Of a stretch of DNA of 17,213 nt, positions 8,092 to 17,106 are shown piece by piece. Source of the DNA: a virus (taxonomy: Duplodnaviria > Heunggongvirae > Uroviricota > Caudoviricetes). A program made the translations under genes and the position numbers. The notes under the pieces are model-generated. The model was given only the letters and a program-made list of their open reading frames with translations, made no database searches and was not told the origin of the DNA. The stretch is from positions 1 through 17,213 of IMG/VR virus record IMGVR_UViG_2681813004_000008; one strand, written 5' to 3'. The first letter of the stretch is position 1; the number at the start of each line of letters is the position of its first letter.

Positions 8092-8322
8092 ATGAACCCA
8101 GCCATCAAAACAGCGATCAATATCGTTGGTTCACAAAAGAAACTAGGCGCTGCCTGCGAAGTTTCACAGCAGGCCGTCTATAAGTGGCTTCACAACAAAG
8201 CAAAGGTATCCCCTGAACATGTCGGCAGCATTGTTACGGCTACTGGTGGAGTAGTGAAGGCATACCAGATTCGCCCGGATCTTCCGAAGTTGTTTCCACA
8301 CACTGAAAAGAACGCAGCTTAA
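8092..8322 (+). CDS. cro: Cro-like HTH regulator, 76 aa
   Basis: Small HTH protein (GSQKKLGAACEVSQQAVYKW) divergent from cI; GGAGG ribosome-binding site 5 nt upstream. Confidence 0.8.
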   Translation: MNPAIKTAINIVGSQKKLGAACEVSQQAVYKWLHNKAKVSPEHVGSIVTATGGVVKAYQIRPDLPKLFPHTEKNAA

Positions 8323-8334
8323 ATTTCCATTTCA

Positions 8335-8347
8335 CGCTCTTTAACAA
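8335..8347 (+). promoter_or_regulatory. boxA-like element (nutR position)
   Basis: CGCTCTTTAACAA lies 13 nt downstream of the cro stop and matches the boxA consensus of lambdoid nut sites and rrn leaders. Confidence 0.45.
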
Positions 8348-8391
8348 TAAGCAATCAACTTAACAGTCAATTCAAACTAAAGGAGTCAATT

Positions 8392-8931
8392 ATGCAACCA
8401 CTTACATACCAACAGACTAGCGGATTTAGCCCGACTGCGGTGATAAATCGTTCTCAAACAAAACAAGCTCCAGGCCACGAAAAAATCCGTGATGCCGTCC
8501 GCGCCTGGTCGGCTGTAGATAATCAGGATGTCGTTGCCGCACTCATTGTGAATGAGTATCGGGAGCAGGGCGGCGGCACCATCGATTTCCCTGATGATGT
8601 CAGCCGTGCACGCCAGAAGCTGTTCCGCTTCCTCGATAACAAATTCGATTCTGAAAAATACAGAAATAACGTGCGTGAACTGACCCCGGCAATTCTGGCG
8701 GTACTACCGCTGGAATATCGCGGTTACCTAGTTGAGCAGGATAGCTTCATGGCTCGGCTGGCTGAAATGGAAAAGGAACTCAGTGAGGCAAAGCAGGCGG
8801 TCATTCTCAACGCACCACGCCACCAGAAACTGAAGGAGATGAGTGAAGGCATTGTGTCGATGTTTCGAGTGGACCCGGATCTGGCTGGTCCACTGATGGC
8901 AATGGTCACCACCATGCTGGGGGCAATATGA
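8392..8931 (+). CDS. Phage early regulatory protein in the cII position (YdaT-like?), 179 aa
   Basis: ORF directly downstream of cro/nutR with a good ribosome-binding site (AAAGGAG); assignment by position and vague family resemblance only. Confidence 0.45.
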   Translation: MQPLTYQQTSGFSPTAVINRSQTKQAPGHEKIRDAVRAWSAVDNQDVVAALIVNEYREQGGGTIDFPDDVSRARQKLFRFLDNKFDSEKYRNNVRELTPAILAVLPLEYRGYLVEQDSFMARLAEMEKELSEAKQAVILNAPRHQKLKEMSEGIVSMFRVDPDLAGPLMAMVTTMLGAI

Positions 8932-9017
8932 CAGGTTCAGAAATGGCGAAAGCCGGTCTGCTGGAACAGAACCGACTTTCAGGTGCAAATCGTAACACAC
9001 TCATTGCGGGAGGAATT

Positions 9018-9908
9018 ATGGCAAACACTGCTGAGATATTCAATTTTCCAGTGCCGGATGCGGCACAAAAGGAGCCGCGCGTGGCAGATCTCGATGATGG
9101 TTATACGCGCATTGCAAACGAGTTGCTGGAAGCTGTGATGCTGGCCGGATTAACACAGCACCAGCTTCTGGTCTTTCTGGCTGTCATGCGCAAAACATAT
9201 GGCTTTAATAAAAAACTGGATTGGGTTAGCAACGAGCAACTTTCCGAATTAACCGGGATATTGCCGCACAAGTGTTCTGCTGCAAAAAGTGTTCTGGTAA
9301 AGCGTGGGATTTTTATTCAGAGCGGGCGGAATACCGGCATTAATAATGTGGTCAGTGAATGGTCAACATTACCCGAATCAGGTAAGAAAAATAAAGTTTA
9401 CCTGAAAGAGGTAAATTTACCCAAATCAGGTAAAGGCGTTTACCCGAATCAGGTAAACACAAAAGACAAACTAACAAAAGACAATATAAAACCTTTTTCG
9501 TCCGAGAATTCTGGCGAATCCTCTGACCAACCAGAAAACGATCTTCCTGTGGTGAAACCGGATGCTGCAATTCAGAGCGGCAGCAAGTGGGGGACAGCAG
9601 AAGACCTGACCGCCGCAGAGTGGATGTTTGACATGGTGAAGACCATCGCGCCATCAGCCAGAAAACCGAATTTTGCTGGGTGGGCTAACGATATCCGCCT
9701 GATGCGTGAACGTGACGGACGTAACCACCGCGATATGTGCGTGCTGTTCCGCTGGGCATGCCAGGACAACTTCTGGTCCGGTAACGTGCTAAGTCCGGCC
9801 AAACTCCGCGACAAGTGGACCCAACTCGAAATCAACCGTAACAAGCAACAGGCTGGCGTGACAGCTAGCAAACCAATGGGCATGCCAGGACAACTTCTGG
9901 TCCGGTAA
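9018..9908 (+). CDS. O: Replication initiator O (lambda-type C-terminal domain) with aberrant C-terminus from a frameshifting tandem duplication
   Basis: From MANTAEIFNF... with GGAGG ribosome-binding site; segment AEWMFDMVKTIAPSARKPNFAGWANDIRLMRERDGRNHRDMCVLFRWACQDNFWSGNVLSPAKLRDKWTQLEINRNKQQAGVTASKP matches lambda O as recalled, but the ORF ends ...MGMPGQLLVR after a 124-bp duplication. Confidence 0.85.
   Translation: MANTAEIFNFPVPDAAQKEPRVADLDDGYTRIANELLEAVMLAGLTQHQLLVFLAVMRKTYGFNKKLDWVSNEQLSELTGILPHKCSAAKSVLVKRGIFIQSGRNTGINNVVSEWSTLPESGKKNKVYLKEVNLPKSGKGVYPNQVNTKDKLTKDNIKPFSSENSGESSDQPENDLPVVKPDAAIQSGSKWGTAEDLTAAEWMFDMVKTIAPSARKPNFAGWANDIRLMRERDGRNHRDMCVLFRWACQDNFWSGNVLSPAKLRDKWTQLEINRNKQQAGVTASKPMGMPGQLLVR
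9369..9500 (+). other. Replication origin inside O: four about 19-bp iterons plus an AT-rich region
   Basis: Iterons TTACCCGAATCAGGTAA (9369), TTTACCTGAAAGAGGTAAA (9397), TTTACCCAAATCAGGTAAA (9416), TTTACCCGAATCAGGTAAA (9439), each with TACC...GGTA dyad symmetry, followed by an A-rich tract (9458-9500). Confidence 0.75.
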
Positions 9909-9999
9909 CGTGCTAAGTCCGGCCAAACTCCGCGACAAGTGGACCCAACTCGAAATCAACCGTAACAAGCAACAGGCTGGCGTGACAGCTGGAAAACCA
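9752..9999 (+). repeat. Tandem direct duplication, 2 x 124 bp, in the 3' end of O
   Basis: 9752-9875 and 9876-9999 are identical except for two mismatches near the 3' end (AGCAAACCAA vs GGAAAACCAA). Confidence 0.9.
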
Positions 10000-10043
10000 A
10001 AACTCGACCTGACAAACACTGACTGGATTTACGGGGTGGATCT

Positions 10044-10745
10044 ATGAAAAACATCGCCGCACAGATGGTTAACTTTGACCGTGAGCAGATGCGTCGGATC
10101 GCCAACAACATGCCGGAACAGTACGACGAAAAGCCGCAGGTACAGCAGGTAGCGCAGATAATCAACGGTGTATTCAGCCAGTTACTGGCAACTTTCCCGG
10201 CGAGCCTGGCTAATCGTGACCAGAACGAACTGAACGAAATCCGCCGCCAGTGGGTTCTGGCTTTCCGGGAAAACGGGATCACCACGATGGAACAGGTGAG
10301 CGCCGGAATGCGTGTTGCCCGTCGGCAGAATAGACCATTTCTGCCATCACCCGGGCAGTTTGTTGCATGGTGCCGGGAAGAAGCATCCGTTACCGCCGGG
10401 CTGCCAAACGTCAGCGAGCTGGTTGATATGGTTTACGAGTATTGCCGGAAGCGTGGCCTGTATCCGGATGCAGAGTCTTATCCGTGGAAATCAAACGCGC
10501 ACTACTGGCTGGTTACCAACCTGTATCAGAACATGCGGGCCAATGCGCTGACTGACGCGGAATTACGACGCAAGGCTGCCGATGAACTGACCTGTATGAC
10601 AGCGCGAATTAACCGTGGTGAGGCGATACCTGAACCAGTAAAACAACTTCCTGTCATGGGCGGCAGACCTCTAAATCTATTACAGGCGCTGGCGAAGATC
10701 GCAGAAATTAAAGCTAAGTTCGGACTGAAAGGAGCAAGTGTATGA
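10044..10745 (+). CDS. P: Replication protein P (DnaB helicase loader), 233 aa
   Basis: MKNIAAQMVNFDREQMRRIANNMPEQYDEKPQVQQVAQIINGVFSQLLATFPASLANRDQ... near-identical to lambda P as recalled. Confidence 0.93.
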   Translation: MKNIAAQMVNFDREQMRRIANNMPEQYDEKPQVQQVAQIINGVFSQLLATFPASLANRDQNELNEIRRQWVLAFRENGITTMEQVSAGMRVARRQNRPFLPSPGQFVAWCREEASVTAGLPNVSELVDMVYEYCRKRGLYPDAESYPWKSNAHYWLVTNLYQNMRANALTDAELRRKAADELTCMTARINRGEAIPEPVKQLPVMGGRPLNLLQALAKIAEIKAKFGLKGASV

Positions 10746-11044
10746 CGGGCAAAGAGGCAATTATTCATTACCTGGGGACGCATAAGAGCTTCTGTGCACA
10801 GGACGTTGCCGCGGTAACAGGCGCAACCGTAACCAGCATAAATCAGGCTGCGGCTAAAATGGCGCGGGCAGGAATCCTGGTCGTTGATGGTAAGGTCTGG
10901 CGAACGGTGTATTACCGGTTCGCTACCAGAGAAGAACGGGAAGGAAAGGTGAGCACGAATCTGATTTTTAAGGAGTGTCGCCAGAGTGCCGCGATGAAAC
11001 GGGTACTGAGGGTATATAAAAGAACATCAATGGGAACACAATGA
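10742..11044 (+). CDS. ren: Ren-like protein (rex exclusion escape), 100 aa
   Basis: MTGKEAIIHYLGTHKSFCAQDVAAVTGATVTSINQAAAKMARAGILVVDGKVWRTVYYRFATREEREGK matches lambda Ren; start overlaps the P stop. Confidence 0.8.
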   Translation: MTGKEAIIHYLGTHKSFCAQDVAAVTGATVTSINQAAAKMARAGILVVDGKVWRTVYYRFATREEREGKVSTNLIFKECRQSAAMKRVLRVYKRTSMGTQ

Positions 11045-11111
11045 TGAAACAGGTGAGTTGAGTTCAAACTGTAGTACAATTCTCTCCAGTTTGAACAGGA
11101 AAGAATATGCT

Positions 11112-11444
11112 ATGAACCCTTATATTTATCTTGGTGGTGCAATACTTGCAGAGGTCATTGGTACAACCTTAATGAAGTTTTCAGAAGGTTTTACACGGTT
11201 ATGGCCATCTGTTGGTACAATTATTTGTTATTGTGCATCATTCTGGTTATTAGCTCAGACGCTGGCTTATATTCCTACAGGGATTGCTTATGCTATCTGG
11301 TCAGGAGTCGGTATTGTCCTGATTAGCTTACTGTCATGGGGATTTTTCGGCCAACGGCTGGACCTGCCAGCCATTATAGGCATGATGTTGATTTGTGCCG
11401 GTGTGTTGGTTATTAATTTATTGTCACGAAGCACACCACATTAA
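11112..11444 (+). CDS. emrE: Small multidrug resistance efflux transporter EmrE, 110 aa
   Basis: MNPYIYLGGAILAEVIGTTLMKFSEGFTRLWPSVGTIICYCASFWLLAQTLAYIPTGIAYAIWSGVGIVLISLL... ; four-helix SMR protein with the conserved membrane Glu. Confidence 0.93.
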   Translation: MNPYIYLGGAILAEVIGTTLMKFSEGFTRLWPSVGTIICYCASFWLLAQTLAYIPTGIAYAIWSGVGIVLISLLSWGFFGQRLDLPAIIGMMLICAGVLVINLLSRSTPH

Positions 11445-11474
11445 AATAATTTGTTTCTAAACGACTAAAATATG

Positions 11475-11505
11475 GAGGCTCTTATATTTATATGAGCCTC
11501 GTTTT
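11475..11505 (+). terminator. Rho-independent terminator after emrE
   Basis: GAGGCTC-(12 nt loop)-GAGCCTC hairpin followed by GTTTT. Confidence 0.6.
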
Positions 11506-11698
11506 ATGCTTTTTGTTAATGTCTTTATTTTTTATGTATTCTTTTGTGCTTTCAAGATTATGGCGTAAGAAAATTGCAATACGATTATTGTTGTATATTC
11601 AAGATAATGTGACCTTAATTGTCTTTTTAAATAAAAATTAAACAAAAATTATATCCCACCACTAAGGTTTATAAAAGCATACGTTAGCAGGTGTCACC

Positions 11699-13225
11699 AT
11701 GAAAAAAGCCATAGCATATATGCGATTTTCATCACCAGGTCAGATGTCTGGCGACTCATTAAACCGACAGAGAAGACTTATTGCTGAATGGTTAAAGGTA
11801 AATAGTGATTATTATCTTGATACCATAACATATGAAGATTTAGGATTAAGTGCATTCAAAGGAAAGCATGCACAATCAGGAGCTTTTTCGGAATTTTTAG
11901 ATGCTATAGAGCATGGTTATATATTGCCAGGAACTACATTGTTAGTTGAAAGTCTGGACAGACTTTCAAGAGAAAACGTCGGTGAAGCGATTGAACGTCT
12001 GAAATTGATTTTGAATCACGGTATTGATGTTATAACTCTTTGCGACAATACAGTCTATAATATTGACTCTTTGAATGAGCCATATTCATTAATAAAAGCC
12101 ATACTTATAGCACAAAGGGCAAATGAAGAAAGCGAGATAAAGTCAAGTCGGGTTAAATTATCATGGAAGAAAAAACGGCAGGATGCACTGGAATCAGGTA
12201 CGATTATGACGGCGTCTTGTCCGAGATGGCTCTCCTTAGATGACAAAAGAACGGCTTTTGTTCCAGACCCCGACAGGGTGAAAACTATTGAGCTAATTTT
12301 TAAACTCAGGATGGAAAGGCGCTCATTGAATGCAATAGCCAAGTATTTAAATGATCATGCTGTAAAGAATTTCTCAGGAAAAGAAAGTGCATGGGGACCT
12401 TCTGTAATTGAAAAATTATTAGCGAATAAAACTCTGATAGGTATATGCGTACCTTCATATCGTGCAAGAGGGAAAGGGATAAGTGAAATCGCTGGCTATT
12501 ATCCCAGAGTCATATCAGATGATTTGTTTTACGCTGTACAGGAAATTCGGTTGGCACCTTTTGGTATTAGCAATAGTAGCAAGAATCCTATGCTAATAAA
12601 TCTACTTCGAACAGTTATGAAGTGTGAGGCTTGTGGTAATACCATGATTGTTCATGCGGTATCTGGAAGTTTGCATGGCTATTATGTTTGTCCGATGAGA
12701 AGATTACATCGATGTGACAGGCCATCAATAAAAAGAGATTTGGTTGATTATAATATCATTAATGAATTGCTTTTTAATTGTAGCAAAATTCAACCAGTTG
12801 AAAACAAGAAAGATGCTAATGAAACTTTAGAGTTAAAAATTATTGAGCTTCAGATGAAAATTAATAATTTAATCGTTGCATTGTCTGTCGCGCCTGAAGT
12901 TACCGCTATAGCAGAGAAAATAAGACTATTAGATAAGGAATTACGAAGGGCTTCGGTATCATTGAAAACTTTGAAGAGTAAAGGTGTAAATTCATTCAGT
13001 GATTTTTATGCTATTGACTTAACCAGTAAAAATGGACGAGAGTTATGCCGTACACTTGCCTATAAAACATTCGAAAAAATCATAATTAATACGGATAATA
13101 AAACCTGTGATATCTATTTTATGAATGGCATTGTTTTTAAACACTATCCTTTAATGAAAGTAATATCCGCCCAGCAGGCGATAAGTGCTCTCAAATATAT
13201 GGTTGATGGTGAGATTTATTTCTAA
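11699..13225 (+). CDS. ybcK: Large serine recombinase (resolvase/invertase N-domain + recombinase domain + zinc ribbon), 508 aa
   Basis: N-terminal AIAYMRFSSPGQ (catalytic Ser region), central recombinase region and CEACG...C cysteine cluster; matches DLP12 YbcK in size and position. Confidence 0.85.
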   Translation: MKKAIAYMRFSSPGQMSGDSLNRQRRLIAEWLKVNSDYYLDTITYEDLGLSAFKGKHAQSGAFSEFLDAIEHGYILPGTTLLVESLDRLSRENVGEAIERLKLILNHGIDVITLCDNTVYNIDSLNEPYSLIKAILIAQRANEESEIKSSRVKLSWKKKRQDALESGTIMTASCPRWLSLDDKRTAFVPDPDRVKTIELIFKLRMERRSLNAIAKYLNDHAVKNFSGKESAWGPSVIEKLLANKTLIGICVPSYRARGKGISEIAGYYPRVISDDLFYAVQEIRLAPFGISNSSKNPMLINLLRTVMKCEACGNTMIVHAVSGSLHGYYVCPMRRLHRCDRPSIKRDLVDYNIINELLFNCSKIQPVENKKDANETLELKIIELQMKINNLIVALSVAPEVTAIAEKIRLLDKELRRASVSLKTLKSKGVNSFSDFYAIDLTSKNGRELCRTLAYKTFEKIIINTDNKTCDIYFMNGIVFKHYPLMKVISAQQAISALKYMVDGEIYF

Positions 13226-13689
13226 ATAATGATCTCGGATTTTAAGTTATGCTATGGTGATAAAGTGCAAGACAGAATTAATTATCTTTGACGAAACTTA
13301 ATGGGTAATTACTTTGTTTGCTCCCACAAGCGAGTTTTGTACGGCTGTATTGGGGTAGTAAATGAGCTATACAATCTTAATCATTTGTTAGGTGAGAACT
13401 CTTGGTCGCAGATTCAAATACTGAAAATACGTGACAAATTATTATGAGCAAAATGGTGTATGTCACGTATTTTGAATGGTAGGTTAAAAAATAACACCGA
13501 CTTTCGTAGGTATTACTAATAATAAAGCAGAGTTTTTAGATAGTATCAATGTGCTTTGTGTATATTGTGGCAAATAATTGGGTTGGGGGTACAATTGTGA
13601 TTGCTTTTGCATGAACATTGCGCCTTTATGCATAATGAGATAAAGGAATATCAAATAAAATAACGATAGGTCATAACAAAGAGGTTTTT

Positions 13690-14241
13690 ATGAAAACACT
13701 TATCGTTTCAACTGTATTGGCATTCATAACATTTTCTGCGCAGGCTGCAGCATTTCAGGTCACTAGTAATGAAATAAAAACAGGAGAGCAACTTACAACG
13801 TCTCATGTCTTTTCTGGATTTGGGTGTGAAGGTGGTAATACATCGCCCTCATTAACCTGGTCTGGTGTTCCTGAAGGTACCAAAAGCTTTGCCGTAACTG
13901 TATATGATCCAGATGCACCTACAGGCAGTGGCTGGTGGCATTGGACTGTTGTTAATATTCCAGCAACAGTAACATATTTGCCCGTTGATGCAGGGAGACG
14001 TGATGGAACAAAACTGCCGACTGGTGCTGTTCAAGGCCGAAATGATTTTGGCTATGCTGGGTTTGGTGGCGCATGTCCTCCTAAAGGAGATAAACCACAT
14101 CATTACCAGTTTAAAGTATGGGCTCTAAAAACTGAAAAGATTCCTGTAGATTCTAACTCCAGCGGAGCGTTAGTTGGTTATATGCTTAATGCTAATAAAA
14201 TCGCAACCGCTGAGATAACACCAGTTTATGAGATAAAGTAG
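13690..14241 (+). CDS. ybcL: Secreted PEBP/Raf-kinase-inhibitor-like protein (YbcL/UPF0098 family), 183 aa
   Basis: N-terminal signal peptide MKTLIVSTVLAFITFSAQAAA; PEBP motifs YDPDAP and GGACPPKG...HHYQF. Confidence 0.85.
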   Translation: MKTLIVSTVLAFITFSAQAAAFQVTSNEIKTGEQLTTSHVFSGFGCEGGNTSPSLTWSGVPEGTKSFAVTVYDPDAPTGSGWWHWTVVNIPATVTYLPVDAGRRDGTKLPTGAVQGRNDFGYAGFGGACPPKGDKPHHYQFKVWALKTEKIPVDSNSSGALVGYMLNANKIATAEITPVYEIK

Positions 14242-14250
14242 GGTGAGAGT

Positions 14251-15048
14251 ATGCTGGCAAGAGGTAAGACTAACTTAAAGATCGAAGAAATACGGATGCA
14301 TAAACATCATGAGATTCATAGGGTTAAGCCTCTTATGCCAGCTTTGTGTCGTATCCGTCAGGGAAAGAAAGTTATCAATTGGGAGACGCATACTTTAACT
14401 GTTGATAATAATCAAATAATATTATTTCCTTGTGGTTATGAATTTTATATTGAGAATTATCCTGAAGCAGGGCTTTATCTTGCAGAAATGCTTTACTTAC
14501 CCATTGATTTAATTGAGAGTTTCCAAAAACTTTATACGGTAACTGATCAAATACGTAACAAAACAAGTTTCTTTTTACCTCAGAATCCTGAGTTAATATA
14601 TTGTTGGGAGCAACTAAAAACATCTGTTTCCCGAGGCTTCTCAACTAAAATTCAGGAGCACTTAGCAATGGGCGTTCTACTTTCGTTAGGAGTGAATCAT
14701 GTTAATCATTTACTTTTATCATATAGTAAACAATCATTGATAAGTCGTTGTTATAACCTGCTGCTATCCGAACCCGGCACAAAATGGACAGCAAACAAGG
14801 TTGCTCGATATCTCTACATTTCTGTTTCTACATTACATCGCCGTCTAGCAAGCGAGGGGGTAAGTTTCCAAAGTATACTGGACGATGTGAGGTTAAATAA
14901 TGCGTTGTCTGCTATACAAACGACGGTAAAACCTATAAGCGAGATTGCCAGAGAAAATGGTTATAAGTGTCCTTCTCGTTTTACTGAAAGATTTCATAAT
15001 CGTTTTAATATAACACCAAGAGAGATAAGAAAAGCTTCCAGAGAGTAA
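14251..15048 (+). CDS. ybcM: AraC/XylS-family transcriptional regulator, 265 aa
   Basis: C-terminal double HTH ([36 protein letters not shown]...[19 protein letters not shown]). Confidence 0.85.
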
Positions 15049-16752: not shown

Positions 16753-17106
16753 ATGCGTGATATTCAGATGGTTCTTGAGCGTTGGGGAGCGTGGGCGGCT
16801 AATAATCATGAAGATGTGACCTGGTCGTCCATTGCCGCCGGTTTTAAGGGATTAATTACTTCAAAAGTAAAATCTCGCCCGCAATGTTGTGACGATGACG
16901 CGATGATTATTTGCGGGTGCATGGCCCGTCTGAAAAAGAACAACAGCGATTTGCACGATTTATTAGTAGATTATTATGTAGTCGGTATGACATTCATGTC
17001 ACTGGCAGGTAAGCATTGCTGCTCTGATGGTTATATCGGGAAAAGGTTACAGAAGGCTGAGGGCATAATTGAAGGGATGTTAATGGCATTAGATATCCGG
17101 TTAGAG
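16753..17106 (+). pseudogene. quuD: Q-like late antiterminator (QuuD type), 3' end replaced by IS1
   Basis: [90 protein letters not shown]... ; the frame continues into IS1 at 17107 and ends with an IS1-encoded tail. Confidence 0.75.

Follow-up and report, generated by a model that had tools for sequence, protein, structure and literature searches.

The closest described relatives of the locus analysed here are the replication genes O and P of phage lambda. In lambda O, origin binding reportedly belongs to the N-terminal part and recruitment of P-DnaB to the C-terminal part (Furth and Dove 1978; Wickner and Zahn 1986). Initiators of this type consist of an N-terminal Phage_rep_O domain, with iterons and an A+T-rich tract lying inside the gene, and of a continuous C-terminal domain with a conserved tail, the stop codon of which overlaps the start of P. 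The number of iterons is six in Stx phages and four in lambda, for which three are enough (PMC7466680). Other prophages relevant to the comparison are DLP12 of Escherichia coli K-12 and its relatives at the argU tRNA-Arg site, among them the R1 prophage and PhiR34_1. A further group comprises the O, P or ori mutants which survive “replicative killing” by a trapped lambda prophage, described by the Hayes laboratory. Cells die when the replication of a cryptic O-P prophage is induced, whereas inactivation of the O-P module abolishes the killing upon induction and rescues them (PMC3640518).

The window, that is, the whole stretch of DNA analysed (17,213 bp), was identified by exact-protein look-up as the whole contig AOTC01000315.1 of the draft E. 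coli assembly GCA_001447405.1. Its content is the early half of a lambdoid prophage at the DLP12 site. The order starts with tRNA-Arg(tct), an intD-type integrase, the exo-bet-gam-kil region, and a Ser/Thr kinase and PP2C phosphatase pair; it proceeds with a cI-like repressor, YdaS/YdaT-like genes, O, P, and ren and ends with the DLP12 cargo (emrE, ybcK, ybcL, ybcM, ybcN, ninE, ybcO, rusA, ylcG, and quuD). Attachment site, intD, and cargo are the same as in DLP12 and its relatives. Two of these, the E. coli R1 prophage (99.6% identity) and the isolated phage PhiR34_1 (98.8%), have a single-copy, intact O. What sets the element apart from these relatives is the presence of IS1 in fimZ and Q, the fusion of bet to exo, the iteron number (four instead of five), and the O duplication described below. 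Because IS1 interrupts Q, the prophage looks defective regardless of O.

Some features of this context deserve mention in their own right. On the minus strand (3278-4672), bet (RecT domain) is fused in frame to exo (YqaJ domain), giving a protein of 464 aa. The fusion corresponds to a 68-bp deletion compared with E. coli R1, with the joint near 3884-3892 and flanked by CATGC (8/9 bases, GTGYCATGC). Apart from this contig, at least three assemblies carry the identical fusion, one of them in a prophage whose integrase and insertion site differ (L006); the fusion is therefore an allele in circulation rather than an error. The kinase and phosphatase pair, also on the minus strand (5737-7202), separates the kil region from the repressor gene; its kinase is of the eukaryote-like Ser/Thr type, and this protein is very widespread, being listed in 1,313 blocks of the collection.

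O and P make up an ordinary O-P module of the lambda kind within a DLP12-type prophage. As in lambda, O begins with a Phage_rep_O domain (PF04492, E = 9e-34, residues 21-115), iterons and an A+T-rich tract are present within the gene, and P belongs to PF06992. At the DNA level, the C-terminal half of O and P are about 95-97% identical to the genes of lambda-type and Stx phages, and the stretch from about 9457 to 10745 shows 95-98% identity to lambda-type and Stx-type prophages. The specificity of the iterons (TTACCCGAATCAGGTAA type) and of the N-terminal domain differs from that of lambda, and YdaS-like and YdaT-like genes (8092-8931) sit where lambda has cro and cII. The continuous C-terminal domain is a further difference: in relatives of this prophage the P start overlaps the O stop (ATGA), whereas O as written in the window is without its last 15 residues and without the overlap. 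No solved structure of O was found. The coordinates of the features are collected in Table 1.

Table 1. Features of the window and segments of its comparison with the sister contig AAVRZO010000105.1.
Feature	Positions	Strand	Description
IS1 end at contig terminus	1..137		Inserted in fimZ; contig break at repeat
tRNA-Arg(tct) attachment site and intD-type integrase	546..1801		Place the element at the DLP12 prophage site
Origin iterons inside O	9369..9456		Four 17-bp inverted-repeat sites (TTACCYRAAxxAGGTAA), then A+T-rich stretch
Frameshifted O gene	9018..9908	+	296 aa = 286 native residues + MGMPGQLLVR; N-terminal Phage_rep_O domain intact
Copy 1 of 124-bp unit	9753..9876	+	Foreign-type T at 9854, resident/sister-type AGC at 9867-9869
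Copy 2 of 124-bp unit	9877..10000	+	Foreign-type T at 9978 and GGA at 9991-9993; sequence beyond also foreign-type
Orphaned native O 3' end	9910..10047	+	45 codons; GTG two bases past the frameshifted O stop; ends ...KLDLTNTDWIYGVDL and stop
Replication protein P	10044..10745	+	233 aa, PF06992; exact allele on AOTC01000315.1 only
IS1 end at other contig terminus	17107..17213		Interrupts Q antiterminator gene (quuD-like, 16753-17106) at 17106/17107
Window vs sister	138-9676		Two SNPs (5448, 5567)
Window vs sister	9677-10709	+	20 SNPs and duplication
Window vs sister	10710-14796		No differences

The O gene starts with an ATG at 9018 which is preceded by GGAGG. An upstream in-frame ATG at 8928 is also open (326 aa), and the ydaT stop overlaps it. 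For this reason, RefSeq annotates O in some cases from the long start (339, 331 or 326 aa) and in others from the lambda-like one at 9018 (309, 301 or 296 aa). Most relatives, including R1 and PhiR34_1, have five iterons; a 24-bp unit (about 9408-9416) is missing both in the window and in the sister contig, and the intact O protein with four iterons is known from only about five contigs. In view of the iteron numbers of other phages, the loss of one iteron is probably tolerated.

A tandem duplication of 124 bp is written in the deposited contig. Tandem Repeats Finder returned a single array (9753-10000; score 482) of 2.0 copies with a period of 124, which match at 98% and are free of indels, and the base-by-base comparison gave 114 identical bases (9753-9866 and 9877-9990), two mismatches at 9867/9991 (A/G) and 9869/9993 (C/A), and then seven identical bases. 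The copies therefore match at 122 of 124 positions, a similarity far above chance. The initial annotation had reported two 124-bp copies with two differences, and the self-comparison bears this out for 9753-9876 and 9877-10000; the register originally given, one base earlier (9752-9875 and 9876-9999), introduces a third mismatch at 9752/9876. The junction between 9876 and 9877 is blunt and has no microhomology, with C at 9752 against A at 9876 and T at 9877 against A at 10001. Slipped-strand mispairing, in which a short direct repeat is expected at the unit boundaries, was rejected since not one base is common at the junction.

Because 124 = 3x41+1, the O frame enters copy 2 shifted by one base. 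Copy 1 is read in the native frame, and a stop is met in copy 2 at 9906-9908, so that the frameshifted protein ends in ...ASKPMGMPGQLLVR, given longer as ...QQAGVTASKPMGMPGQLLVR, with the last 15 residues of O replaced by 10 others. The native end, ...AGKPKLDLTNTDWIYGVDL, is encoded out of frame in copy 2 and beyond, and its stop overlaps the P start within an ATGA at 10044-10047. As written, the P start is now 135 nt 3' of the frameshifted O stop instead of overlapping the stop of O. The new C-terminus and the native tail retained out of frame had both been recognised in the initial annotation, which had also concluded, from the role of the C-terminal domain in recruiting P-DnaB, that the prophage is probably replication-defective. 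This conclusion needs qualifying, as the domain as a whole is not replaced, the change being confined to the last 15 residues. These residues, with the tail KLDLTNTDWIYGVDL, are almost invariant in natural alleles, whereas the linker preceding the tail varies. Given this near invariance, loss of function of the frameshifted O is plausible. Since the C-terminal part of lambda O recruits P-DnaB, loss of the tail would plausibly abolish initiation, if the duplication is real.

Relatives of the prophage were found via the rare bet-exo fusion protein. The nearest of them, the sister contig AAVRZO010000105.1 (L007), represents the same prophage and has the 68-bp bet-exo deletion and the 24-bp iteron loss in common with the window. 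Its O is continuous (331 aa) and overlaps P, and the protein is identical to the O of the window minus copy 2. By coordinate arithmetic, the sister contig starts at about 17103, within about 3 nt of the Q/IS1 junction, and the insertion in Q may thus be shared; the IS1 insertion in fimZ is not common to the two contigs. The two SNPs at 5448 and 5567 are 120 nt apart, in non-coding sequence between kil and the PP2C gene, and are private to the window, being absent from 11 of 11 relatives.

All the remaining differences between the two contigs fall in a segment of about 1 kb covering the 3' part of O and most of P (9677-10709). The 20 SNPs of this segment are mostly third-position and synonymous, with four amino acid changes in P and one in O, and for this reason they are genuine variants derived from another functional O-P allele. 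Sixteen of them match the lambda-type prophage of E. coli strain 144, and the combination of 9677T and 9734T, which occurs in only two of 5,426 genomes, is among these matches. Strain 144 was nevertheless rejected as the donor throughout, since there are 24 further sites at which the window agrees with the sister and not with strain 144. A single natural donor was not found among complete genomes: the best match reaches 98.0% and is the resident type itself, and for the P part the best value is 97.9%. At 10678-10681 (P codons 212-213), four substitutions turn CGTGCA into CTATTA and lead to R212L and A213L. No other instance of this change came up in complete E. coli genomes, GTDB representatives, IMG/VR contigs or JGI metagenomes, nor does the P protein as a whole (WP_058101622.1) occur outside AOTC01000315.1. 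As the four-base cluster occurs nowhere else in these collections, the foreign allele is an unsampled one.

The two mismatches between the copies lie in one codon (9867-9869/9991-9993), which is a natural hypervariable spot encoding Ser, Gly or Arg in the cluster members. The A...AGC state is found in the sister contig, R1, and JJ1887, and the T...GGA state in strain 144, NMBU-W12E19, and a prophage of O157:H7. The foreign T...GGA state continues from copy 2 into the sequence that follows it, and copy 1 joins the foreign T to the resident AGC. The combination of T with AGC is absent from all 18 fetched loci, and a 427-bp single-copy reconstruction carrying it matched no complete genome at 99% identity or more. 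Because copy 1 ends in the resident type and copy 2 in the foreign type, the repeat is the joint of two O alleles, distinguished by a Ser(AGC)/Gly(GGA) polymorphism, and not an aged duplication. Two origins had been proposed for the mismatches in the initial annotation; the recombination product of two alleles agrees with these natural states, and ageing does not.

The duplication was also looked for elsewhere. A 61-base junction probe found no full-length match and only half-matches in 5,426 complete E. coli genomes, and a degenerate 30-mer across the junction was absent from GTDB species representatives, IMG/VR, and JGI metagenomes. At the protein level, the junction peptide was compared with 5.8 billion protein clusters; the matches stop at the native part, and no representative carries the junction. 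Among about 15 billion proteins, the truncated O of 296 aa (WP_058101626.1) is listed for a single contig. In its single-copy form, the O-3'/P segment occurs in 3,229 of the 5,426 complete genomes, in up to five places per genome. Every relative compared encodes a single continuous O; in the comparison with prophages lacking the duplication, which had been proposed at the outset, R1, PhiR34_1, and the sister contig all proved to have a single-copy, intact gene.

Four explanations of the repeat have been weighed. A simple tandem duplication within one allele, later drifted by two point mutations, accounts for the small number of mismatches in 124 bp. Both changes, however, lie in one codon and exactly recreate the alternative natural allele, the flanks of copy 2 are foreign-type and the tip of copy 1 is resident-type, and the remainder of the contig is almost without drift from the sister. 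The differences are thus not random point changes, and drift was rejected as very improbable. Still less credible is a functional arrangement, either a programmed +1 frameshift giving a full O with an internal repeat of 41 residues or a two-piece O formed by reinitiation at GTG. The GTG at 9910 does lie just after the stop, and the tail ORF retains the ATGA overlap with P, but no slippery motif is present in 9877-9908, and the arrangement is not conserved, being unique to one contig whose relatives all have a continuous O; programmed frameshifting was rejected on these grounds. An assembly or gap-closure mis-join is on balance the probable origin of the joint, and we lean towards it over a real lesion. 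It is known that gap closers abut overlapping unmerged extension fronts, and false duplications of this kind are common. The O repeat resembles the false duplications seen at draft contig joins and gap closures in its two alleles in tandem, its blunt joint, its occurrence in one assembly, and its location in a segment that is multi-copy in many E. coli genomes, and we infer that it belongs with them. According to this explanation, the left arm would run to 9876 and end in the resident AGC, and the right arm would restart 124 bp back (9877 being equivalent to 9753) with the foreign GGA. Phasing of the 119-bp SNP-free stretch at 9735-9853 is beyond short (100-base) reads; two extensions meeting in the repeat would overlap by 124 bp, remain unmerged owing to the AGC/GGA conflict near one tip, and be abutted. 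The joint would then most likely have been made in software during contig building, the isolate itself would have one intact copy of O, like the sister strain, and the frameshift would not be biological; what the sequences show directly is that the repeat is a singleton, that it is made up of two alleles, that the junction is blunt, and that the sister O is intact. The mis-join is further favoured by the nature of the sequence, an entire contig of a draft assembly bounded by IS1 on either side, and by the confinement of the repeat to a single assembly when a near-identical sister with two SNPs outside 9677-10709 has one copy. All other differences are restricted to an O-3'/P stretch common to lambdoid prophages, each copy carries one natural state of the only strong polymorphism in the unit, the T and AGC combination is absent from the 18 fetched loci and its reconstruction matched no complete genome at 99% identity or more, the junction is free of microhomology, and copy 1 ends 7 nt past the polymorphic codon. 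A Logan contig of the same lineage (L009, SRR21284099), equivalent to 595-9526 of the window, points in the same direction. It ends 30 nt past the allele-specific site 9496, as is expected for k=31, the value of the Logan graph, if that genome holds a second O allele, and this suggests the presence of a second lambda-type O allele in that member of the lineage, in addition to the repetition of the O-3'/P segment in many E. coli genomes. The end of this contig also marks the place where short-read graphs break in the O gene. Against the mis-join, de Bruijn-graph assemblers cannot invent junction k-mers, and a gap closer, a scaffolder or an overlap-consensus step is needed. Moreover, the foreign variants are clean, mostly synonymous, and accompanied by the private P change at 10678-10681, so that the foreign allele is real DNA, which a real recombination could have imported. 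The existence of EIW6222063.1, an intact four-iteron O with the Gly allele in another assembly, likewise indicates that the prophage backbone recombines with Gly-type alleles in nature.

The main rival to the mis-join is a real duplication, which would have arisen in the cell when the resident DLP12-type prophage and a second lambdoid O-P module recombined in a single complex event; its chance is appreciable, though short of even. The mechanism would be template switching in recombination-dependent replication, and the same event would have installed the foreign segment of about 1 kb at 9677-10709. The conserved last 15 residues of O would be replaced and O uncoupled from P, and origin-dependent replication would probably be abolished in a prophage already without Q owing to IS1. 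This explanation agrees with the selection-filtered, mostly synonymous character of the foreign variants, of which 16 of 20 are as in strain 144 (9677T and 9734T included), and with the other decay in the lineage, namely, the bet-exo deletion, the iteron loss, and IS1 in Q. It also fits the contrast between a nearly invariant tail and a variable linker, and most assemblers do not create unsupported junctions. In addition, O-P knockout rescues cells from cryptic-prophage killing (PMC3640518); since in-situ O-P replication of a trapped prophage kills the host, an O lesion would be neutral or favoured. The more specific proposal of a real, single template switch between co-resident lambdoid prophages, kept because O loss protects the host, is doubtful. 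The mutants surviving replicative killing are alike in being defective prophages with an O-inactivating lesion, but they differ in that the lesion considered here is written in a contig sequence and may not exist in the cell. Several observations weigh against a real event: the repeat is a singleton in all collections searched, tandem duplications in E. coli do not usually have blunt junctions, a resident-type micro-patch (AGC) must precede the illegitimate switch back to the foreign template by 10-22 nt, and everything must fit within a divergence from the sister of two SNPs per about 14 kb. The initial annotation had named an assembly error as what would overturn the duplication as a mutation; the singleton status of the repeat, the repetition of O-P between prophages, and the single copy of the sister contig make such an error at least as likely as a real mutation.

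The favoured mis-join and the private inactivating mutation have different consequences, and neither a false duplication nor a lesion of this sort is new in kind. If the repeat is an artefact, the RefSeq protein WP_058101626.1 and the private P allele WP_058101622.1 would be mis-join products, and the O-P module common to prophages would be a trap for short-read assemblies and for the pseudogene calls derived from them. If the repeat is real, it would add to the inactivating lesions of a DLP12-type prophage already in decay. Its modest interest would then lie in a blunt two-allele recombination joint in a replication gene; such a captured joint would be non-homologous, like those that give rise to phage mosaics.
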